DNA of 45,934 bases from the NCBI GenBank assembly GCA_947465215.1, contig CANHZX010000002.1, positions 1-45,934 of the forward strand. Direction: 5' to 3'. Source of the DNA: Betaproteobacteria bacterium (lineage in GTDB: Bacteria; Pseudomonadota; Gammaproteobacteria; Burkholderiales; SG8-41). Shown here piece by piece: positions 10,046 to 22,569 of the stretch. The position numbers were made by a program, and so were the translations under genes. Each line of letters opens with the position of its first letter. The first letter of the stretch is position 1. The notes below the pieces were generated by a model. It saw nothing but the letters and a program-made list of their open reading frames with translations, did no database searches and was not told where the DNA came from.

Positions 10046-11488
10046 ATGAAACATTCCTTACAGCTCAGACTCTCGCAACACCTGACATTGACGCCGCAAT
10101 TGCAGCAGTCGATCAGGCTGCTGCAACTGTCGACGCTTGAGCTCAACCAGGAAATCGAACGTCTGCTACAGGACAATCCGCTGCTCGAAAGAATCGACGG
10201 CGCGTCCGACCCATCATCGCCGCAACGTGAGACGCCGCAATCCGAAAATGCCGAAATGCCCGAGGCAGCGGCCGACAACAGCGTCCAGGAGCCGGCGTCC
10301 GGCGCCGAAGAATCCGCTTCATTCGATGTCGAAGACGGCCCGTCCTACAACAGTATCAGTAGTAACGACAACGAAGATGATGACTACGCGCCGCTGGTCG
10401 AACAGCCGCCGAGTCTGAGCGCACACCTGACGGCACAGTTGTCGCTGCTCCACCTTTCGGAGCGCGACAAGCGCCTGGTTAGCCTGCTGATTGATTCTTT
10501 GAACGACGACGGGTACCTGCCGCAGAGCCTTGAAGAGATCGGCGAGATGCTGCCGCAGGAACTCGATGTCGACCAGGACGACCTGGCCATCGCTTTACAG
10601 CACCTGCAGCACCTTGAGCCGGTGGGTGTCGGCGCACGCAACCTGGCCGAATGTCTGTCGCTCCAGCTTGCTGCCATGCCGGACGACACGCCGCAGCGCG
10701 ACGCAGCACTGGAAATCGTCAGGCATCACCTGGATGTGCTGGCTGCGCGCGACTTCACGCGCCTCAAGCGCACGCTCAAATGCGACGACGACTGCCTGCG
10801 TGTCGTGCAAAAACTGATCACCAGCCTCAACCCCAAGCCGGGCCGCGATTTCTCCTCCGAGGAAACGCGGTTTGTCATCGCCGACGTCATCGTGCGCAAA
10901 ACCAAGGGCCTGTGGCTCGCAACCCTCAACCCCGACGCCATGCCGCGGCTGCGGGTCAACCGCATGTATGCCGACATCCTGCAGCGCAACCGTGGCGGCA
11001 GCGCACAACAGCTGAACTCCCAGCTGCAGGAAGCCAAGTGGCTGATCAAGAACGTGCAGCAGCGTTTCGAAACCATCCTTCGCGTGTCCCAGGCCATTGT
11101 CGACCGCCAGCGCAACTTCCTGGAACACGGTGAAGTCGCAATGCGACCGCTGGTTCTGCGGGAGATCGCGGAAACGCTGACACTGCATGAATCAACAGTG
11201 TCGCGGGTGACCACACAGAAATTCATGCACACGCCACGCGGCATTTTCGAGCTGAAATATTTTTTCGGCAGCCATGTCGCCACCGAAGCCGGCGGCGCGG
11301 CATCCAGCACCGCCATCCGCGCACTGATTAAACAGCTGGTCAGCGCAGAAAACACCCGGTCGCCGCTCAGCGACGGCCAGATTTCGGAATTGCTCGGCCA
11401 GCAGGGTATAGTGGTGGCGAGGCGCACCATTGCAAAATACCGTGAATCGATGCAAATCCTCCCGGTGAATCTCAGAAAAACGCTTTAA
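10046..11488 (+). CDS. rpoN: RNA polymerase sigma-54 factor RpoN
   Basis: Gln/Leu-rich region I ([13 protein letters not shown]), an acidic region II, and a C-terminal RpoN box ([14 protein letters not shown]). Confidence 0.97.
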
Positions 11489-11501
11489 ACAAGGAGAAGC
11501 C

Positions 11502-11831
11502 ATGAACCTGCACCTGACGGGCCACCACCTCCAGATCACTCCTGCGATCCGCGAGCATGTCGCGCACAAACTGGAAAAGATCACCGCCCACTTCGATCAC
11601 GTTATCGACATCAGCGTCATCATGACAGTGGAAAAACTCCAGCATAAAGTCGAAGGAAAGATGCACCTGAGCGGCAAGGAAATTTTCTGCGAAGCCCACA
11701 GCGAGGACATGTATGTCGCCATCGACCATCTCGTCGGCAAACTGGACCGCGCGGTGATCAAGCACAAGGAAAAGAACCTCTCCCATCGTCACGACGGCGC
11801 GCCGATAAAACACCGCGCAGTCGAAGAGTAA
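11502..11831 (+). CDS. hpf: Ribosome hibernation promoting factor (short HPF / sigma54 modulation protein)
   Basis: 109 aa. The N-terminus is MNLHLTGHHLQITPAIREHV, typical of HPF/YfiA. It lies immediately downstream of rpoN. Confidence 0.9.
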   Translation: MNLHLTGHHLQITPAIREHVAHKLEKITAHFDHVIDISVIMTVEKLQHKVEGKMHLSGKEIFCEAHSEDMYVAIDHLVGKLDRAVIKHKEKNLSHRHDGAPIKHRAVEE

Positions 11832-11864
11832 AACCGTCTCACTGAATCGCGACTCCCGCACGCC

Positions 11865-12350
11865 ATGAACCTGATTGCCAAGCTGCTGCCCGCCTCGAAC
11901 ATCCTGCTGGACACCGACCTCACCAGCAAAAAACGGGTTTTTGAGCAGGCCGGCCTGCTGTTTGAAAACAACCAGCAGGTCGCGCGCAACGTGGTCTTCG
12001 ACAGCCTGTTCGCGCGTGAAAAACTCGGCTCCACCGGTCTGGGCCAGGGTGTCGCGATTCCGCACGGCCGCATCAAGGGACTCAAGGCAGCTGCGGGGGC
12101 GATCATCCGCATGCAGAACCCGATCCCGTTTGATGCACCGGACGGCCAGAACGTGCGGCTGGCATTCGTGCTGCTCGTTCCTGAACGCGCCACTGACGAA
12201 CATCTGCAGATCCTCTCGGAACTGGCGCAGATGTTCTGCGACAAGCCCTTCCGCGAAAAACTGTTCACGGCAGCCACGCCGGATGATTTTCTCCAGTTGA
12301 TCACACAATGGGATCCCAATGCCGCAGGTCAGCATAGCCCGGCTGTTTGA
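11865..12350 (+). CDS. ptsN: Nitrogen-PTS enzyme IIA-Ntr PtsN
   Basis: The PTS EIIA type-2 active-site region is GLGQGVAIPHGRI. It sits in the conserved rpoN-hpf-ptsN position. Confidence 0.9.
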   Translation: MNLIAKLLPASNILLDTDLTSKKRVFEQAGLLFENNQQVARNVVFDSLFAREKLGSTGLGQGVAIPHGRIKGLKAAAGAIIRMQNPIPFDAPDGQNVRLAFVLLVPERATDEHLQILSELAQMFCDKPFREKLFTAATPDDFLQLITQWDPNAAGQHSPAV

Positions 12351-13263
12351 CGACACCCGCGATAAGCTGCAGCTGACGTGGGTTGCCGGTCGCGATGGCG
12401 CCGACAAGGGCCTCGACAGCGAGTTGACCAAGGACTCGTCGAAGGGTCTGGTCGGCCACCTCAACTTCATCCATCCCAACCTGATCCAGGTGCTGGGACA
12501 GTCCGAAGTCAATCACCTGAACGGCCTTGATCCGGCCGAGTGCCGGGAACTGCTGAACCGCACAGCCACCCGCGAACTCTCCTGCTTCATCATCGCCGGA
12601 GCCAACGACATACCGCCGGCGCTGCTCGAAGTCGCCGAAGCCACCCATACACCGCTGTTTACCTCGCCGATCCCCAGCGTTGAACTGATGTGGATCCTGC
12701 GTCCGCACCTCGCGCGCACGCTGGCCGATTCCACGACAGTGCATGGCGTGTTCCTCGATGTACTCGGCGTCGGCGTGCTGATCACCGGTGACTCAGGTGT
12801 CGGCAAAAGCGAACTGGCGCTGGAACTGATCAGCCGCGGTAGCGGACTGATCGCTGACGACGTGGTCGAGCTCTATCGCGTCGGCCCGGAAAGCGTAGAA
12901 GGCCGCTGCCCGTCTTTGCTGCGCGACTTTCTTGAAGTGCGTGGCCTCGGAGTACTTAACATCCGCACGATTTTCGGTGAAGCCGCGCTGCGCCCGCGAA
13001 AAAACGTAAAGATTGTCGTCCATCTCGAAAAACCCTCGGGCTCCGATCCGACTTTCCTCGACCGCCTGCCGCTCAAACCTGGTAGCGAATTGCTGATGGA
13101 GGTCGAGATCCGCAAAGTCACGATCCCGGTAGCAGCCGGCCGCAACCTCGCCGTGCTGACCGAAGCTGCAGTGCGCAACCATGTGCTGCAGATGCGCGGC
13201 ATCGACAGCACCCGGGAGTTCGTCGAACGGCAGTCGCAGGCAATGCAGAACCAAGACGACTGA
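12319..13263 (+). CDS. hprK: HPr kinase/phosphorylase
   Basis: P-loop GDSGVGKSELALELI plus the HprK signature LLEVRGLGVLNIRTIFG. It overlaps the ptsN 3' end by 32 nt. Confidence 0.9.
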   Translation: MPQVSIARLFDDTRDKLQLTWVAGRDGADKGLDSELTKDSSKGLVGHLNFIHPNLIQVLGQSEVNHLNGLDPAECRELLNRTATRELSCFIIAGANDIPPALLEVAEATHTPLFTSPIPSVELMWILRPHLARTLADSTTVHGVFLDVLGVGVLITGDSGVGKSELALELISRGSGLIADDVVELYRVGPESVEGRCPSLLRDFLEVRGLGVLNIRTIFGEAALRPRKNVKIVVHLEKPSGSDPTFLDRLPLKPGSELLMEVEIRKVTIPVAAGRNLAVLTEAAVRNHVLQMRGIDSTREFVERQSQAMQNQDD

Positions 13264-13277
13264 ACGGCGCTGATGCG

Positions 13278-14117
13278 ATGCAACTGATCCTGATCACCGG
13301 GCTTTCCGGTTCCGGCAAAAGCGTGGCACTGGCGGTCATGGAAGACGCCGGCTTCTACTGCGTCGACAATCTGCCGGTGAACATGGTCAGCTCGTTGGTT
13401 GAAACACTGCGCAACTCCGGCACTGAACGCGTCGCACTGACCATTGATGTGCGCACCGGCGAAGCCATCACAGGACTGCCCGATCTGGTGACGCGCCTGC
13501 GCGAAGACGGCGTTGAAGTACGCGTGATGTTCCTCGAAGCCAAGTCCGAAACGCTGATCAAACGCTACTCCGAGACCCGCCGCCGCCACCCGCTGTCGGC
13601 GACCGGGCTGACGCTGCCGGAATGCATCGCCCGAGAAAAGGAACTGGTCGCCGGCATTTCCGATATGGCCCACCACATCGATACCAGTGACCTTGCCCCC
13701 AACACGCTGCGCAGCTGGATCAAGGATTTCGCCGCGGCGCCGGTGGCTGGCCTGACCCTGCTGTTTGAATCCTTCGGCTTCAAGCACGGCATCCCGCTCG
13801 ATGCGGACTTCGTGTTCGATGTGCGCTGCCTACCCAATCCCCATTACGACCCACAGCTACGTCCGCTGACCGGCTGCGATGAACCGGTTGCCGCATTCCT
13901 GCGCGCGACTCCTGATGCGATGCGCATGCTGGAAGACATCAGCCGCTTCATCAGCGACTGGCTGCCGGCCTTCGAACGCGATAACCGCAGTTATCTGACC
14001 GTGGCCGTCGGCTGCACCGGCGGCCGTCACCGTTCGGTGTTTTTCGTAGAAACCCTGTCTGCGCGCTTCCGCGACCGCACCCGCACGCTCGCTCGCCACC
14101 GCGAACTCGGCGCATGA
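13278..14117 (+). CDS. rapZ: RNase adapter / nucleotide-binding protein RapZ (YhbJ)
   Basis: N-terminal Walker A GLSGSGKSVAL and a C-terminal GCTGGRHRSV motif. Confidence 0.92.
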   Translation: MQLILITGLSGSGKSVALAVMEDAGFYCVDNLPVNMVSSLVETLRNSGTERVALTIDVRTGEAITGLPDLVTRLREDGVEVRVMFLEAKSETLIKRYSETRRRHPLSATGLTLPECIAREKELVAGISDMAHHIDTSDLAPNTLRSWIKDFAAAPVAGLTLLFESFGFKHGIPLDADFVFDVRCLPNPHYDPQLRPLTGCDEPVAAFLRATPDAMRMLEDISRFISDWLPAFERDNRSYLTVAVGCTGGRHRSVFFVETLSARFRDRTRTLARHRELGA

Positions 14118-15889: not shown

Positions 15890-15963
15890 TGGAGCGGGTG
15901 AAGGGAATCGAACCCTCGTATGCAGCTTGGGAAGCTGCCGTTCTACCATTGAACTACACCCGC
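15890..15963 (-). tRNA. tRNA-Gly (anticodon CCC)
   Basis: The reverse complement reads GCGGGTGTAGTTCAATGGTAGAACGGCAGCTTCCCAAGCTGCATACGAGGGTTCGATTCCCTTCACCCGCTCCA. It has a cloverleaf, T-loop GGTTCGATTCC, anticodon loop CTTCCCAAG and an encoded CCA. Confidence 0.93.
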
Positions 15964-15985: not shown

Positions 15986-18976
15986 TCAGCCCGCCGCGCG
16001 CGACACCCGGCACAGCAGCACCTTGAGATTGGTCTGATCCGACACAGGATCGCGCTGGGTGTTGTCGGTCAGGAAATTCACCGGACGCCAAGGGTTGTAC
16101 GGTTGACGCTCGCCCCAGCCGATGGGGATGAACACCGCAGCCGAACGAATACCGGCATGCACCCAGGCCATGGCCTCGATGCTGCCGTGTGCCGACTCGA
16201 CGCGCACCCGCTCACCATCCTTGATACCGAGCTTTGCCGCCTTGTCGGGATGAATCTGGCAAAACAGGTCCGGCCACATTTCCTGCGACTGCCAGAAATA
16301 ATGCGTCCAGCTGTGGAAATGCGCTGCAGACGGACGCCCCGTCACGAGTTCGGTATCGAAGCCCTGTTCGCGCAACTTCAGCCCCGGGTGATCGGGTCCC
16401 GGAGCAACAATTCGACCGCGCGCACTGCCGGTGGCCGGCGAGCAGAAGGGTGAGATCACGCCGGCTTCGCCGTCGGTTTCCAGTAATTCCATATACGGCA
16501 GATCAATCAGCTGCTCGCGCTCCGAATAAAACTCGGGCAAAGCCGACAGTCCGAGCACATTGAATTTGGCTTCGAGTTCATCCGTCCAGAATTCCAGCTT
16601 GCCCGATTTCGTCGGGAAGCGCCGTCCCGGCGCCCCACCTGGCACCGTCGTGCCTTCGAGGAAAAGCGTTTCGATTTCCGGCGCGTCTTCGGTCGCTACC
16701 GGCTGACGCACCCAGCGGTACGGCACCGAGTGCAGACGCTTCTGTGTACAACCGCGCAGGCCTGGACTGTCGATGCAGACCTCGTCCCAGAATACCGCGG
16801 GGTCCTTGTACTTGTCTTTCAGCACATCATCAAAACCGAAGCGTTTGCCGAGTTCGATCCAGATCCACGTATCCGACTTCGCCTCGCCCGGCGGATCGAT
16901 CATCTTGTCGATCCACACAATGCGGCGGTCGTCGTTGGAGCGGCCAATCTCGCCTTTCTCGATGCCGCTCGCCGCGGGCAACAGGTAGTCGGCAAACGCC
17001 GAGGTTTCATTGGCAAAGAGTTCGATATGCACCATCAACTCGAGTGCAGCGAAGGCTTCACGCGCCTTAGCCTGCCCCGGCCATTGCGCCATCGGGTTGT
17101 TGCAGGTGATCAGCGCACGAATCGGATACGGTTTGCCGTGCAACATCGCCTCGGTCCAGCCTGCCGGACTGCGCCGCACCCGTTGCTTGTTGATTTTCGG
17201 CGCACGGTGTTCCGGCACCTTGGCCGCAATCGGCGTACCCGCGCTCATATTGAAAAAGGCGCCACCGCGCCGGCCCCAGTTGCCGGTGATAGCCGCGACG
17301 AACATCAGCACGCGGTTGGTCTGCGTGCTGTTGGTGTGCTGGTTGACGCCGCGACTGGCGAATATAACGCAGCCGTCGGCTGCAGCAATCTCTTCCGCCA
17401 GTCGTTTGATGTCTGCGGCCGCAATGCCGGTACTCTGTTCGGCCCACTCCGGCGTGTAGTTTTTCTGCAGGATGAAATCCCGCCACTGCTCGAAGCCTAG
17501 CACCCAGTCCGCGCAGAACTTCGTATCGTGCAGATTGTTGGCGATGATGTGCTGCGCCAGTGCCAGCCCCAGGGCCATGTCGGTGCCGGGACGGATCGGC
17601 AGCCAGCGATCCGCTTTCGACGCCGTCGCCGTCAAGCGCGGATCAACGGCCACCATCTTCGCGCCGTTTTTGATGCGCCAGTCATTGATCATGCCGAAAT
17701 ACACAGGCCGGGTCTCTGCCTGGTTATCGCCGATATAAACGTACAACTCGGCTGAACCGAGATCGTTTTCGGTATAACTGTTGCCGCTGCCGATGCTGCC
17801 CAGCGTGATTTCGAAAGCGACGTTTTTGCCGCTGGCGCAGAAGGGATCAGTGCCATCCTTGTTGGGCGTGCCGAACATCTGTGCAAACATTTTGGTGGTC
17901 GCACGGTAATCCAGAATGCCGGTGCGCGTGCCGATGAACATCGCCAGCGCTTCGGCGCCGTACTGATCGCGGATGACTTTCAGCTTGTCGGCAATTTCAT
18001 CGAGCGCCTGATCCCAGGAAATGCGTTCAAACTTTCCTTCGCCGCGCGCGCCGACACGCTTTTGCGGATACAGCAACCGGTGTTCGCTGTGATACATCTG
18101 CAGCGTCAGCTGCGATTTCGGGCAGACCCTGCCTTTCAGCAGCGGATCATCTTCGTTGCCGGTGATCTTTATTAACTTATTGTCTTTAAAGTGAAATTTT
18201 ACCGTGCAGCAGTTGAAGCAGATATTGCAGCCGCCGGGCACGACACGATCAGGCGCCGTGTCCTCCCGCGTTTCGCCATAGGGAAACGCAGGCTTCTGGG
18301 CCTGCACTGCGGTCTGCGCCGCCAACCCGTCCATGAATGACGGCCGCCGCGATTCGCCGGGATGCGCACGCGCGGGCGTAACCGCCGTCGGTGTCGCCTC
18401 GTTGCGAGGCGTGGTGCGCTCCAGATAAATCGTCGCAGGTCCGAGCAGGAAATGATCATTGTCGCGCGGCAGCCGGCCGGACTGTTTGGCATCAGCCAGC
18501 AGCTCGTCGCGTTTGCCGAAACGGATGGCCTGGGTCGGACAGACGCTGGCGCAAGCGGTTGTGGTTGAACCTTCGGCACGGCGCTCCGAACACAGGTCGC
18601 ACTTCACCGCATGATGACCTTTGGCGTCGTAACCCATCGCGCTGTACGGACAGGCGATGACGCATTCACCACAACCAGTGCAGCGCGATTCATCAACACG
18701 CACAACACCGGTGACCGGATCCTTGGAGATGGCTTTCGGATTCACCGGGCAGGCGCGCAGGCAGGCCGGACGCTCGCAGTGCTGGCAGGTCAGCGTCAGG
18801 AAGGCGAGGCCCGCCTCCTCCAGTGCGCTCGCCCACACCACCTTGTTGCGGTACTCGCCGGGGCCAAGGCGGTGCTCGGTCTTGCAGGCGGCCTCGCAAC
18901 TCTTGCAGCCGGTGCAGCGCTCCAGGTCGATCAGCAGCGCAACGCGTTCGGAAGGTCCGTTGTTCACACCATCCAT
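15986..18976 (-). CDS. Fused four-cluster ferredoxin subunit :: molybdopterin (Mo/W-bisPGD) oxidoreductase catalytic subunit; no N-terminal signal peptide
   Basis: 996-aa uninterrupted ORF. Residues ~20-150 carry four Cys groups (CTGCKSCEAAC, CQHCERPACLRAC, CTGCGECVIAC, CDLC-x12-CASVC). Residues ~250-996 are MopB-like, with the FS0 motif CNICFNCC...27 aa...CPK and a C-terminal beta-barrel-like segment (GDRVRVES-type: GERVRVESAHGSIE). Confidence 0.85.
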   Translation of the reverse strand: MDGVNNGPSERVALLIDLERCTGCKSCEAACKTEHRLGPGEYRNKVVWASALEEAGLAFLTLTCQHCERPACLRACPVNPKAISKDPVTGVVRVDESRCTGCGECVIACPYSAMGYDAKGHHAVKCDLCSERRAEGSTTTACASVCPTQAIRFGKRDELLADAKQSGRLPRDNDHFLLGPATIYLERTTPRNEATPTAVTPARAHPGESRRPSFMDGLAAQTAVQAQKPAFPYGETREDTAPDRVVPGGCNICFNCCTVKFHFKDNKLIKITGNEDDPLLKGRVCPKSQLTLQMYHSEHRLLYPQKRVGARGEGKFERISWDQALDEIADKLKVIRDQYGAEALAMFIGTRTGILDYRATTKMFAQMFGTPNKDGTDPFCASGKNVAFEITLGSIGSGNSYTENDLGSAELYVYIGDNQAETRPVYFGMINDWRIKNGAKMVAVDPRLTATASKADRWLPIRPGTDMALGLALAQHIIANNLHDTKFCADWVLGFEQWRDFILQKNYTPEWAEQSTGIAAADIKRLAEEIAAADGCVIFASRGVNQHTNSTQTNRVLMFVAAITGNWGRRGGAFFNMSAGTPIAAKVPEHRAPKINKQRVRRSPAGWTEAMLHGKPYPIRALITCNNPMAQWPGQAKAREAFAALELMVHIELFANETSAFADYLLPAASGIEKGEIGRSNDDRRIVWIDKMIDPPGEAKSDTWIWIELGKRFGFDDVLKDKYKDPAVFWDEVCIDSPGLRGCTQKRLHSVPYRWVRQPVATEDAPEIETLFLEGTTVPGGAPGRRFPTKSGKLEFWTDELEAKFNVLGLSALPEFYSEREQLIDLPYMELLETDGEAGVISPFCSPATGSARGRIVAPGPDHPGLKLREQGFDTELVTGRPSAAHFHSWTHYFWQSQEMWPDLFCQIHPDKAAKLGIKDGERVRVESAHGSIEAMAWVHAGIRSAAVFIPIGWGERQPYNPWRPVNFLTDNTQRDPVSDQTNLKVLLCRVSRAAG

Positions 18977-18977
18977 A

Positions 18978-19838
18978 TCAACCTCCCCATGACCGCAAAT
19001 GCCACCAGGTAATCGGTTCGCCGCCGGCGACGTAACCGGCGAAGAAAGTCACGGTGATCACATGGATCACCACACCCAGCACAAACAGCCAGGCCAGTGC
19101 CATATGCAGCGGCCGCCACCACGCCTGCTTGGCGGAAACCGCAGCACGGGTCCCCAGCAGCAGCGATTCCTCGCGCGCCAGTTTGCGGTAAGCCAGCGCC
19201 AATCCGGGTTTGCGGATGAAATGGGGCAGATTGACCGAGAACGTGCCCTCGTTTGCCTGCGGATCGAGTTGCGCCAGGAGCTCTCGCTTTTCCGCGATCA
19301 ATACGCGCAGCCGCGCCCGTGTTACGGCATCAGGCACTTGAAATGCCGGGGCTTTTGAGGCGAAGGTTGCCGCCATGCGCCGCGAACCACGGACCCGCGC
19401 CCAGACACCCAGCGCGGCCAACGCAACCAGCGTCAGCAACATCAGCGCCGGAGGCCGGCGCAGGAGTCCGCCGGAGTGGATTGCAATCAGCACCATGCCC
19501 AGCAGCGAACAGGCGACGTGGGCGTTGAACCAATTGACGGGATTGGCACCGCTACCGCCACGCTTGGCAATCACAAAAGCCACCGGCACCAGCAGCAGGA
19601 GCACGCCGGCAACGCCGCTCAGATACAACTGAGGGCTGCCGGGCGAACGCCAGGCTTCGGGCAAAAGACCGCGCAGCAAAAACCACAACACGATGGCCGC
19701 AACAGCCGCAACCGTCAGTTGCAGCAGCCTCGCGTCAGGAAGGTCGTTTCGTTGCAAGATGAAGGCGACTCGGCAATGGTTGCAGGGGTTGGGGCAGTTT
19801 ACATCGCCTCCAGCCCTCGCTGTCACGCGTATCCACAA
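18978..19838 (-). CDS. Five-TM membrane protein with two H-x13-H helices (putative di-haem b-type electron-transfer anchor)
   Basis: Five hydrophobic segments. H107-x13-H121 lie in one helix (HVACSLLGMVLIAIH) and H245-x13-H259 in another (HMALAWLFVLGVVIH). The stop at 18978 is 1 nt from the downstream start at 18976. The true start is uncertain, since there is also a TTG at the ILQRN position. Confidence 0.6.
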   Translation of the reverse strand: MWIRVTARAGGDVNCPNPCNHCRVAFILQRNDLPDARLLQLTVAAVAAIVLWFLLRGLLPEAWRSPGSPQLYLSGVAGVLLLLVPVAFVIAKRGGSGANPVNWFNAHVACSLLGMVLIAIHSGGLLRRPPALMLLTLVALAALGVWARVRGSRRMAATFASKAPAFQVPDAVTRARLRVLIAEKRELLAQLDPQANEGTFSVNLPHFIRKPGLALAYRKLAREESLLLGTRAAVSAKQAWWRPLHMALAWLFVLGVVIHVITVTFFAGYVAGGEPITWWHLRSWGG

Positions 19839-19866: not shown

Positions 19867-22569
19867 TCAGCCGCCCTTCAGTGCCAGCGTCACCCGCTTC
19901 ACCTGCGGATCCTCATTACTTTCGGAAACCACAAAGCCCAGTTCCTGGCACAAATCGAGCATGCCGCGGTTACTGCTCAGGACATGACCGACCATCGCCT
20001 CCAGTCCGCGGCGGCGCGCAACCTCGATCAGCACCATCATCATGCGCCGGCCGAGTCCGCGGCGCTGCCAGTCATCGGCAACCACGATCGCATACTCACA
20101 GGTCACTGCGTCCGGATTGGTGATGTAACGACAGACGCCGACCTCGACCTCCTTGCCGTCGCGCTGCACCGTCGCAACAAACGCCATCTCGCGGTCATAG
20201 TCGATCTGCGTGAAACGCACCAGCATCGTCGGCGTCAGTTCACGCAATGTATCCATAAAACGGAAACGCCGGCTCTCCGGTGATAAGCCTCTTACAAACT
20301 CCTGTTCCATCTCGGCATCTTCCGGCCGGATCGGCCGCAGCGTGACGAGTTCACCTTCCGGCGGCTGCCAGGTGCTGATCAGACGCGCCGGATAGGGGTG
20401 GATTGCCATATGGCCATAGCGGCCACGTATCGGCGCATGCTGGCCAACGACAATTCGTGCATCGGCAACGATGGCGCCGTTTTCGTCAACAATCAGCGGA
20501 TTGATATCGAGTTCCTCGATCCACGGCAGTTCGCAGACCATTTCCGAAATACGCAGCAGCACTTCTTCCAGCGCCTCCCGGTTCACCGCCGGCATCCTGC
20601 GGAAAGGTCCGAGCAGCTTCGATACCCGCGTGCTTGCAATCATCTCCGCAACAAGGAATGAGTTTAGCGGCGGCAGCGCCACGGCACGGTCCTTGTGCAC
20701 CTCAACCGCCACGCCGCCCGAACCGAAGGCAATCGCCGGGCCGAACACCGGATCTCGGATCACGCCGACCATCAGTTCGCGACCGTTGCGCCGGACCACC
20801 ATGGGCTCGACAGCAACACCGGTCACGCGTGCCTGCGGCTGCTTGCGCGCCACGGAATCAATAATCTGCTGATAGCCGGTCAGCACCGCCTGCGCGGAGT
20901 TCAGGTTCAACAGCACGCCGCCGGCATCCGTCTTGTGGGTAATGTCGGGCGAATCGATTTTCAGCGCCACCGGATAACCCAGTTCACCCGCGATCAGCAT
21001 CGCCTCATGGGCGCTATGCACGATAACTGTCTTTGCCACCGGCAGCAGGAACGCCGACAGCAGCGCCTTCGATTCAATTTCATTGAGGACGCTGCGGCGA
21101 TCGGTCAGCACCGAATCAATGATCAGCCGCGCCGCTTCGAGATCCGGGGCCGATCGGAGAGCCTGCGGACCCGGGGTCTGCATTAGTGCGCGCTGGTTAC
21201 GGTAGAACGACGATACATGCGCGAACGTTTCGACCGCGGGCTCCGGCGTGCGAAACACCGGAATACCGGCTTCGGCCAGACGACGTCGTCCGTCAATCAC
21301 CGAGGCATCACCCATCCAGCAGGCAAGCACGGGTTTGGAACGGCCGCGCGCCGCCTCGACCACGGCATCGGCAACGGCGGATGGTTCGGTCATCGCCTGC
21401 GGTGTCAGCATCACCAGTGCACCGTCGACATTTTCATCGGCGAGGCAGGCGGTAAGCCCGGCACGGTAACGCTCGGCATCGGCGTCACCGATCAGGTCCA
21501 TCGGATTGCCGTGGGACCAGTTCGACGGCAATACGGTTTGCAATGACTCAATGGTCGCCGGCGACAGATCGGCGAGCGGTATACCCAGATCCGCAGCACG
21601 ATCCGCAGCCATCACGCCCGGGCCGCCGCCGTTGGTGATGATCGCCAGGCGGTCGCCACGCGGCCGGATATGCGAGGACAAGGCCTGCGCCGCAGCCACT
21701 AACTGGCCGATGGTCGTTACCCGCACCGCACCGGCGCGATGGATCGCTGCGTCAAACACGTCGTCAGCGCCGACAATGGCACCCGTATGCGACACCGCAG
21801 CGCGTGAACCCACCGGATGCCGCCCGACTTTCATCAGGATCACCGGCTTCAGTCGCGCCGCTGCGCGCAGGCTCGACAGGAAGCGTCGCGCATCGCGCAC
21901 GCCTTCAATGTAGAGCAGGATGTGCTCGGTCTTGGGGTCGTTGACCAGATAGTCAATGATTTCGCCGAAGTCGATGTCCCGCGACCCCCCCATAGAGATG
22001 ACGCTCGAAAAGCCGATCTTGTTGGGCCCGGCCCAGTCGAGCATCGCCGTACACAACGCACCCGATTGCGACACCAGCCCGAGCGACCCCGGAAGGGCAT
22101 TGCCACGCGCGAAAGTGGCATTCAGGCCGACGCCCGGACGCATCACCCCCAGACAGTTGGGTCCGATCACCCGGACCCGGTGACGGCGCGCGTTTTCCAA
22201 CAATTCCCGCTCAAGCCTCGCCCCTTCCGGGCCGACTTCGGAAAAACCGGCGGTAATCACCACCACCGAACGCACGCCGGCCATGCCGCACTCGGTAATC
22301 AGCTGGGGTACCGTCTCGGGCGGCGTGGCGATGACCGCCAGATCCACACGCTGCGGCACCTTGTCGATGCCGGGAAAACACGGCACCCCTTTGATGCTGG
22401 TCTGCTTCGGATTGACCGCGAACAGCGCGCCGCGATAACCGGCGGCCAGCATGTTGTCGATCAGCACCGCACCGATGGAGCCCGCCCGCGTGCTGGCGCC
22501 GATGATGGCCACCGACGCCGGTTCGAACAGGGGGGTCAGATAGTGACGGTCCAGCAGGTTTGAGGCCAT
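19867..22569 (-). CDS. pat: Pat/PatZ-type protein acetyltransferase (NDP-forming acyl-CoA synthetase-like domains fused to C-terminal GNAT)
   Basis: 900 aa. It has an N-terminal CoA-binding domain (VAIIGASTRAGSIG), succinyl-CoA-synthetase-like and ATP-grasp regions, and a C-terminal GNAT motif QRRGLGRRMM. Confidence 0.88.
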   Translation of the reverse strand: MASNLLDRHYLTPLFEPASVAIIGASTRAGSIGAVLIDNMLAAGYRGALFAVNPKQTSIKGVPCFPGIDKVPQRVDLAVIATPPETVPQLITECGMAGVRSVVVITAGFSEVGPEGARLERELLENARRHRVRVIGPNCLGVMRPGVGLNATFARGNALPGSLGLVSQSGALCTAMLDWAGPNKIGFSSVISMGGSRDIDFGEIIDYLVNDPKTEHILLYIEGVRDARRFLSSLRAAARLKPVILMKVGRHPVGSRAAVSHTGAIVGADDVFDAAIHRAGAVRVTTIGQLVAAAQALSSHIRPRGDRLAIITNGGGPGVMAADRAADLGIPLADLSPATIESLQTVLPSNWSHGNPMDLIGDADAERYRAGLTACLADENVDGALVMLTPQAMTEPSAVADAVVEAARGRSKPVLACWMGDASVIDGRRRLAEAGIPVFRTPEPAVETFAHVSSFYRNQRALMQTPGPQALRSAPDLEAARLIIDSVLTDRRSVLNEIESKALLSAFLLPVAKTVIVHSAHEAMLIAGELGYPVALKIDSPDITHKTDAGGVLLNLNSAQAVLTGYQQIIDSVARKQPQARVTGVAVEPMVVRRNGRELMVGVIRDPVFGPAIAFGSGGVAVEVHKDRAVALPPLNSFLVAEMIASTRVSKLLGPFRRMPAVNREALEEVLLRISEMVCELPWIEELDINPLIVDENGAIVADARIVVGQHAPIRGRYGHMAIHPYPARLISTWQPPEGELVTLRPIRPEDAEMEQEFVRGLSPESRRFRFMDTLRELTPTMLVRFTQIDYDREMAFVATVQRDGKEVEVGVCRYITNPDAVTCEYAIVVADDWQRRGLGRRMMMVLIEVARRRGLEAMVGHVLSSNRGMLDLCQELGFVVSESNEDPQVKRVTLALKGG

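Follow-up and report, generated by a model that had tools for sequence, protein, structure and literature searches.

The window considered here is a stretch of 45,934 nucleotides (positions 1 to 45,934 of contig CANHZX010000002.1) from Betaproteobacteria bacterium, a member of the Burkholderiales. On its reverse strand it carries two adjoining genes, one for a membrane protein and one for a large redox enzyme, whose products resemble the complex iron-sulfur molybdoenzymes (CISMs). The usual plan of these enzymes comprises a catalytic subunit (A), a four-cluster iron-sulfur subunit (B), and a membrane anchor (C) as three separate polypeptides. In the window, one open reading frame (ORF) carries both B and A, as is also the case in 121 close homologs; we refer to this protein as B::A and to the membrane protein encoded directly upstream as the partner. 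The system is a CISM by cofactor content, with a MopB module that possesses the FS0 cluster motif and a protein ligand to the metal and with a four-cluster module of 16 Cys. Three connected features set it apart from the textbook plan: the B::A chain keeps all its cofactors, the anchor appears to represent a new family, and the enzyme is predicted to face the cytoplasm, with no chaperone encoded nearby.

The fused B::A protein

The fusion gene and its parts are located as follows:

15986..18976, reverse strand: B::A fusion gene, 996 amino acids, ATG start, without a signal peptide or a transmembrane (TM) segment
18422..18976, reverse strand: B module, residues 1 to 185, a four-cluster ferredoxin of the PsrB/DmsB type containing 16 Cys (Fer4_11, 77.7 bits; PsrB, 2vpw_B, 80 bits)
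18242..18421, reverse strand: linker, residues 186 to 245, Pro/Thr/Ala-rich, of low conservation, compared with the N termini of the unfused relatives P0122 and P0124
15986..18241, reverse strand: A module, residues 246 to 996, the molybdenum or tungsten bis(pyranopterin guanine dinucleotide) (Mo/W-bisPGD) catalytic part, from Pfam matches
18229-18122, reverse strand: codons of the FS0 residues Cys250, Cys253, Cys257, and Cys285, from the sequence motif
17839-17837, reverse strand: codon of Cys380, the metal ligand, from its alignment with PsrA Cys173

The Pfam matches on the protein are Fer4_11 (residues 58 to 156), Molybdop_Fe4S4 (244 to 292), Molybdopterin (300 to 712; E 7e-48), and Molydop_binding (877 to 986). 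The Cys of the B module form four groups (21/24/27/31, 64/67/72/76, 99/102/105/109, and 126/129/142/146), and in FS0 the arrangement C250-x2-C253-x3-C257 is followed by 27 residues and then C285. When 122 members of the family were aligned, all 16 B-module Cys and those of FS0 proved 99 to 100% conserved, as are Cys380 and Arg542 (each 100%) and Thr350 (98%), which aligns with His145 of PsrA. The residue after Cys380 is Ala381 in 96% of the members; formate dehydrogenases have a His there. FS0 further contains an extra Cys, Cys256 (18208-18210), which makes a doublet with Cys257 in the sequence CNICFNCC; it lies outside the standard C-x2-C-x3-C pattern and is 99% conserved in the family.

The least conserved part of the alignment spans residues 181 to 240 (identity 0.42 to 0.50, with gaps), as befits a linker. 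A trivial explanation for such a chain would be an artifact of assembly or sequencing, in which a lost stop codon or a frameshift joined ordinary B and A genes. We reject this, as it has virtually no chance of being correct: an unbroken fusion protein of 970 to 1020 amino acids is present in more than 120 clusters (sequences grouped at 90% identity), found across independent NCBI, ENA, JGI, and Logan assemblies, as well as in 80 of the 80 genome loci that were fetched. Moreover, the linker has a conserved C-terminal part, in which the residues FPY correspond to the N terminus of the unfused A relatives. The original prediction of a single polypeptide, with the four ferredoxin groups, the Pro/Thr/Ala-rich linker, and FS0 placed as found here, is hence borne out.

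Neither a twin-arginine translocation (Tat) nor a secretory (Sec) signal was found at the N terminus of the window protein, and no hydrophobic segment was detected in it (maximum KD19, 1.35). Among the 121 full-length homologs, none has a Tat signal, and the median length before the first Cys group is 18 amino acids. The absence of export signals supports the earlier suggestion that the enzyme faces the cytoplasm.

Searched against 5.8 billion proteins, B::A gave 1947 matches. The best 120 of these are 948 to 1093 amino acids long, are 69 to 94% identical to the window protein, share an identical domain set, and are named only as “molybdopterin-dependent oxidoreductase” or with a double COG0243/COG0437 label. 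No NCBIfam model reaches its cutoff on B::A, the matches being as follows:

Fdh-alpha (TIGR01591): 324 bits, cutoff 666
PhsA (NF012032): 311 bits, cutoff 694
DmsA/YnfE: 238 bits, cutoff 778
NasC: 227 bits, cutoff 1100
DMSO_red_II_alp (TIGR03479): 216 bits, cutoff 985

The closest solved structure to the A module is that of Thermus PsrA (2vpw), at 225 bits, and the best B-type match is PsrB. Judged from the aligned residues, the active site appears neither similar to that of formate dehydrogenase nor a clear match to that of Psr. A formate dehydrogenase was rejected on account of the missing His after the ligand Cys and the Fdh-alpha score below cutoff, and a Nar-type enzyme on account of the Cys ligand, the low type II score, and the lack of a NarI match. 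A SoeA model was not among the listed NCBIfam matches, and no NrfD-type (SoeC-like) gene adjoins the module. In the literature, we found no description of the B::A fusion family or of its partner, and no curated family or solved structure that we found appears to cover either protein. The clade may accordingly be regarded as uncharacterized, as had been proposed.

The membrane partner and its pairing with B::A

The partner gene and its junction with the B::A gene comprise the following features:

18978..19757, reverse strand: membrane partner gene, 259 amino acids, five TM segments, predicted N-in/C-out (from hydropathy, K/R counts, and homolog lengths)
19476..19520, reverse strand: TM3, with His80 (19520-19518) and His94 (19478-19476) as H-x13-H, proposed axial ligands of an inner and an outer heme b
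19062..19106, reverse strand: TM5, with His218 (19106-19104) and His232 (19064-19062) as a second H-x13-H pair, the sole stretch matching DUF4405
19122..19391, reverse strand: TM4-TM5 loop, 90 amino acids, K/R-rich, predicted helical, the proposed cytoplasmic docking surface for B::A
18974..18988, reverse strand: gene junction, with the Shine-Dalgarno sequence GGGGAGG (18988-18982), the partner stop codon TGA (18980-18978), one base, and the B::A start codon ATG (18976-18974)

The open frame of the partner extends back to 19838 (286 amino acids), from where the original prediction had counted it. Since the homologs have 257 to 259 amino acids and mostly an ATG at the aligned position, the true start is most likely the TTG at 19757. 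The description of the product as a five-TM protein with histidine pairs holds with this correction: it shows five hydrophobic segments and two H-x13-H pairs. His80, His94, His218, and His232 are invariant in 28 diverse sequences, and both pairs are retained in a homolog of only 36% identity from the locus L090, which is described below. The His of each pair are spaced 14 apart, and TM3 and TM5 are both predicted to run from inside to outside, which would put the pairs in register for two stacked bis-His hemes. The four invariant His fit a di-heme cytochrome b, and we predict heme binding on this basis. The predicted cytoplasmic side holds 20 K+R, as against 4 outside. Within the long loop, 16 K+R stand against 7 D+E, the motifs EGTFS and REE..LGTR are conserved, and a low-confidence model suggests helices at 144 to 164 and 177 to 201.

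None of the known CISM anchor types (NarI, the Ni_hydr_CYTB type of FdnI/PhsC, the NrfD type of PsrC, or DmsC) accounts for the partner: the NarI, Ni_hydr_CYTB, NrfD, and DmsC models of Pfam give no match even at E values up to 1. The only family approached is DUF4405 (PF14358; gathering cutoff, 26.7 bits), which scores 27.4 bits on the 286-amino-acid ORF, 23.0 on the 259-amino-acid protein, and 16 to 24 on four partner homologs, with the last helix alone aligning. All 649 relatives of the partner in the database are labeled either “hypothetical” or “DUF4405 domain-containing,” and a profile search that included the divergent L090 homolog again gave close family members among the matches listed. 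A DUF4405 protein of Oscillospiraceae with four central His has been shown experimentally to bind heme b, and transmembrane electron transfer is the presumed role of the family (PMC11334425). Like the partner, the DUF4405/MsrQ cytochromes bear four conserved central His on two helices. The partner differs in having five predicted TM segments rather than six and an added 90-amino-acid cytoplasmic loop, and its gene adjoins that of a Mo enzyme, whereas DUF4405/MsrQ genes are linked to ApbE or flavinylation genes. Judging from these comparisons, the partner probably constitutes a new, previously unnamed type of anchor that is just marginally DUF4405-like.

The Shine-Dalgarno sequence of B::A lies inside the 3′ end of the partner gene, and the two genes are translationally coupled in the window. 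We examined the pairing at 80 loci, three of which are cut at a contig end and lack upstream DNA. In 77 of the 77 testable loci, a partner homolog (50 to 95% identity) is found directly upstream of B::A on the same strand, and this strict co-occurrence spans Burkholderiales, Alphaproteobacteria, and Nitrospinota. The order of C before B::A and their tight coupling, as first proposed for the window, are borne out, and the order holds in all the testable loci. It could be argued that such adjacency is only operonic, with a soluble B::A that exchanges electrons with ferredoxin or another carrier and a membrane protein of unrelated role. The closest unfused relative, P0122 (locus L009), lends this some color: its B and A genes adjoin those of a 2-oxoacid:ferredoxin oxidoreductase, and no partner homolog was found within that locus. 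We consider it highly improbable, given that the pair stays together across phyla in all 77 loci while all other neighbors change, that the two genes are translationally coupled, that the partner has four invariant His, and that its family was found solely beside this MopB clade, including an unfused A-C-B form.

Distribution, relatives, and genomic surroundings

A scan of one genome per species recovered relatives in 291 genomes. The best 80 of these 291 are all metagenome-assembled genomes (MAGs), from Burkholderiales and other Betaproteobacteria, Alphaproteobacteria including Rhodospirillales, and Nitrospinota; the closest B::A among them, at 99% identity, comes from a Burkholderiales MAG with an isolate name beginning “ME2005.” All retrievable source names likewise belong to MAGs. 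To date, the two-gene enzyme is known exclusively from freshwater and marine bacteria that are uncultured, and its hosts look like ordinary aerobes, such as nitrite oxidizers of the Nitrospinota and lake Burkholderiales. Three MAGs (L023/L036, L024/L035, and L016/L068) each carry two diverged copies of the module, of ~77 to 78% and 88 to 93% identity to the window B::A, every one of them paired with a partner gene of its own. Between Nitrospinota, Alphaproteobacteria, and Burkholderiales (comparison of L060-L089, from Nitrospinota and from MAGs classified only as “bacterium”), the B::A proteins are still 66 to 71% identical. For phyla so far apart this is a high value, which suggests that the two-gene module has spread horizontally.

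When 1.84 billion representatives at 50% identity were searched exhaustively, the fused family collapsed to a single full-length representative, P0121, after which come proteins with A only. Their signal peptides, as read from the sequences, are the following:

P0122, unfused A: 55% identity, no signal peptide
P0124, unfused A: 46% identity, no signal peptide
P0126, unfused A: 44% identity, Tat signal
P0128, unfused A: 40% identity, Tat signal
P0133 and P0135, unfused A: 34 to 36% identity, Tat signal

None of these unfused relatives reaches a curated cutoff either. The catalytic domains were placed in a neighbor-joining tree (703 columns, 60 bootstraps), a distance tree built without named reference enzymes. 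It has a nested form, in which the Tat-type relatives branch off first, followed by P0124 (95%) and P0122 (100%), with the fused clade innermost (100%); the placement proposed earlier as a check thus sets the fused proteins within relatives lacking a Tat signal and these, in turn, within relatives possessing one. Two further B::A fusions, P0147 (Dehalococcoidia) and P0266, fall elsewhere and lack the partner, which indicates that they arose independently.

Gene context follows the same series. In the Tat-type relative, A is joined by B, by a gene for a NarJ/TorD-like chaperone, and by one for another Fe-S protein. In L090 (2141-6930), the P0124 A gene is followed by one for a 277-amino-acid partner homolog (hhalign probability, 99.5%; E 2e-23), with both H-x13-H pairs present, and then by B and a gene of the URO-D family. 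In L009, B directly precedes the A gene of P0122. The outgroups have clear RR signals and the B::A family has none, which points to a loss of export specific to this lineage. We propose as the likely history, on the strength of these sequence comparisons, that export was lost, that the cytochrome was then recruited, and that B was finally fused to A. In one locus (L007, 3413-13471), the Tat-exported P0126 adjoins a second, ordinary Psr-like B/NrfD/A operon. The P0126 operon itself also encodes a protein with a Cu_amine_oxidN1 domain and a chaperone of the NarJ/TorD type, and this sister group is likewise uncharacterized.

Apart from the partner, ORF clustering over the 80 loci recovered no neighbor that is conserved across lineages, in agreement with the earlier observation that no chaperone, regulator, or substrate-suggestive gene is adjacent in the window. 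Synteny is local to lineages (Pat-like acyl-CoA synthetase/GNAT, mutY, greA, iscSU, and cysE); in Nitrospinota-type loci, for instance, greA is found immediately upstream, while downstream there is a cysE-iscS-iscU cluster, encoded on the opposite strand. In the window, one flank holds rpoN, ptsN, hprK, rapZ, a LON-domain gene, and mutY, and the other holds a 900-amino-acid acyl-CoA-synthetase/GNAT gene, thiS, thiG, trmB, and tctC. A scan for promoters and terminators near the operon gave nothing above background. The surrounding features with assigned positions are these:

10046-14117, forward strand: rpoN-ptsN-hprK-rapZ regulatory cluster
15890-15963, reverse strand: tRNA-Gly(CCC) gene, 22 nucleotides downstream of the B::A stop codon and before mutY
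19867-22569, reverse strand: 900-amino-acid NDP-forming acyl-CoA synthetase/GNAT fusion (Pat-like), whose synteny with the module is limited to 18 Burkholderiales loci

The tRNA also follows B::A in close relatives from the Burkholderiales, at a distance that varies from ~25 nucleotides to ~4 kb (L010 versus L023 and L033), suggesting that the interval separating it from the operon is a spot of variable insertion. At L005 (4332-11066), and at no other locus, the TRAP transporter genes dctP, dctQ, and dctM lie directly upstream on the same strand, and the end of dctM overlaps the partner start, as if the pair belonged to an uptake operon. A URO-D gene, as seen in L090, also occurs 3 kb from the module in L005 and in no other locus. 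These being isolated occurrences, we rejected both dctPQM and URO-D as clues to the substrate.

Proposed mechanism and comparison with known systems

Several known enzymes share parts of this architecture. The PsrABC/PhsABC type (Thermus thermophilus; PDB 2vpw) provides the best structure match for both modules of B::A, with PsrA Cys173 equivalent to Cys380 and Arg332 to Arg542, and both systems have FS0 and a 16-Cys four-cluster protein. It differs in its three polypeptides, in its Tat-exported and periplasmic PsrA, and in its heme-free, eight-TM anchor of the NrfD type, PsrC. With NarGHI, the system shares a Mo-bisPGD subunit facing the cytoplasm, a subunit with four clusters, and an anchor with five TM segments and two b hemes (in the partner, predicted ones), a likeness that permits a redox loop with quinol oxidized at the outer face. 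NarG, however, belongs to the type II enzymes and has an Asp ligand, and Nar needs the chaperone NarJ, whereas B::A has a Cys ligand and no linked chaperone; further, NarI has another His spacing than the partner and the opposite, N-out topology.

Other parallels concern orientation or fusion. Psr-like enzymes without export, encoded by psrA2B2 of Sulfurimonas and psrA3B3C3 of Sulfurovum, have been proposed to be cytoplasmic (PMC10045233). Going by their description, these proteins of Campylobacterota are set apart from B::A by their separate subunits, their PsrC-type anchor or lack of one, and their different lineage. ActB, a subunit of alternative complex III and the sole well-known case of MopB-like and four-cluster modules in one chain, resembles B::A in this respect; it is a periplasmic protein with the A::B order that has lost the Mo-bisPGD and three clusters (PMC10100899). 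The reverse order of the domains and the retention of all ligands in B::A led us to reject an identity with ActB. The formate:menaquinone oxidoreductase ForCE/YjgC is an N-terminal Fe-S/MopB fusion that faces the cytoplasm and feeds quinone (PDB 8rqz; PMC8808070). It differs from B::A in its NuoG-like N-terminal domains, its non-heme partner ForE, and its formate dehydrogenase active site.

Taking these comparisons together, we favor, at about even chances, a Nar-like half-loop that faces the cytoplasm, in which quinol would be oxidized outside and a cytoplasmic substrate reduced. The partner would bind two b hemes between TM3 and TM5, with His80 and His218 holding the one near the cytoplasm and His94 and His232 the one near the periplasm, and the soluble B::A would dock on its 90-amino-acid cytoplasmic loop. 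Quinol would be oxidized at the conserved periplasmic face (PGS, H-S, RRPP, and WWH), releasing protons outside, and the electrons would traverse the membrane by way of the two hemes, travel through the B module by its four [4Fe-4S] clusters, and arrive at FS0 and then at the Cys380-ligated Mo/W center, where the cytoplasmic substrate would be reduced. Overall, this would amount to an energy-conserving redox half-loop akin to that of NarGHI, built with another cytochrome and with a catalytic module resembling Psr/Phs.

The reductase direction in this scheme is a lean. It is favored because reductases (PsrA, PhsA, Nas, and Dms) make up most of the nearest characterized relatives of the catalytic module and because Ala, not His, follows Cys380. 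The same architecture could also serve a dehydrogenase, in which a cytoplasmic donor is oxidized at Mo and electrons pass through the Fe-S clusters and hemes to quinone, and we regard this as a possible, if clearly less probable, alternative. Candidate donors would include sulfite, the substrate of SoeABC, formate, that of ForCE, and arsenite, and the membrane potential may help a weak donor. Aerobic hosts would gain by feeding electrons into the quinone pool, the module sits amid housekeeping genes with no adjacent regulator gene found, and MsrQ/NOX-type di-heme proteins with a similar His pattern carry electrons outward. Cytoplasm-facing MopB dehydrogenases are also known, and one of them, ForCE/YjgC (PMC8808070), is among the PDB matches. 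Set against this are the reductases among the top characterized relatives and the failure to find a sulfur- or arsenic-related gene linked across lineages; formate in particular is unlikely because the Cys/Sec-His dyad is absent.

The His arrangement of the partner permits yet another role. The ferric-reductase/MsrQ/DUF4405 proteins, which have presumed extracytosolic acceptors, are marked by two H-x13-H pairs placed on two helices, and the conserved periplasmic PGS and WWH could equally be a protein-docking site or a quinone site. The partner might hence act as a quinone-independent wire in the MsrQ/NOX/DUF4405 style, from B::A to a periplasmic or extracellular protein encoded elsewhere. This strikes us as improbable: in no lineage does the pair have a conserved neighbor that encodes a periplasmic redox protein, ApbE, or a flavinylation function, and the module looks self-sufficient in 77 loci. 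A bolder reading, which we rate somewhat higher and still as unlikely, envisages a new class of energy-converting membrane enzyme in which a cytoplasmic Mo/W enzyme is connected to an MsrQ/NOX-like di-heme cytochrome and either acts on a substrate beyond those of known CISMs or moves electrons between its cytoplasmic Mo site and the cell exterior, as a housekeeping function in abundant uncultured aerobes such as the Burkholderiales of lakes and the Nitrospinota of the sea.

Several points weigh against the favored half-loop. Heme binding, complex formation, quinone use, and catalysis are predictions from sequence. The DUF4405 match of the partner appears weak and covers one helix; the partner model (mean predicted local distance difference test [pLDDT] score, 60.6) found no Foldseek match in the PDB at E < 0.5, and a partner profile run against PDB sequences found nothing better than E 0.5. 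The AlphaFold2 model of B::A, made from an eight-sequence alignment, has a mean pLDDT of 43 and is unusable. No conserved neighbor, regulator, or maturation chaperone points to a substrate or to anaerobic control, and in aerobic-looking hosts a quinol-consuming reductase is not obviously useful, which is why the reductase direction is held as just a lean. Rating the locus as the best respiratory candidate, as the original prediction did, therefore went slightly beyond the data: an uncharacterized redox system it is, and a respiratory role is plausible for it in hosts that look aerobic.

CISM enzymes drive much of the anaerobic cycling of nitrogen, sulfur, arsenic, and selenium, and the catalogue of their subunit plans is regarded as good. 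The present system adds a plan of which we found no description, joining a cofactor-complete B::A chain to a predicted new family of heme b anchors in a predicted cytoplasmic orientation. It is also widespread, being found in about 290 species-level genomes, of which the 80 examined all belong to uncultured lineages common in lakes and oceans. What is new here is the strict co-occurrence of the partner, the probable new anchor type, the likely route from Tat-exported relatives, and the corrected partner start. Having only two genes and no apparent dedicated chaperone, the module is small enough for heterologous expression, which would make its substrate directly testable. Finally, the nested series from Tat-exported enzymes through cytoplasmic three-gene forms to the fused protein would offer an example of how a respiratory enzyme is re-oriented and rebuilt.

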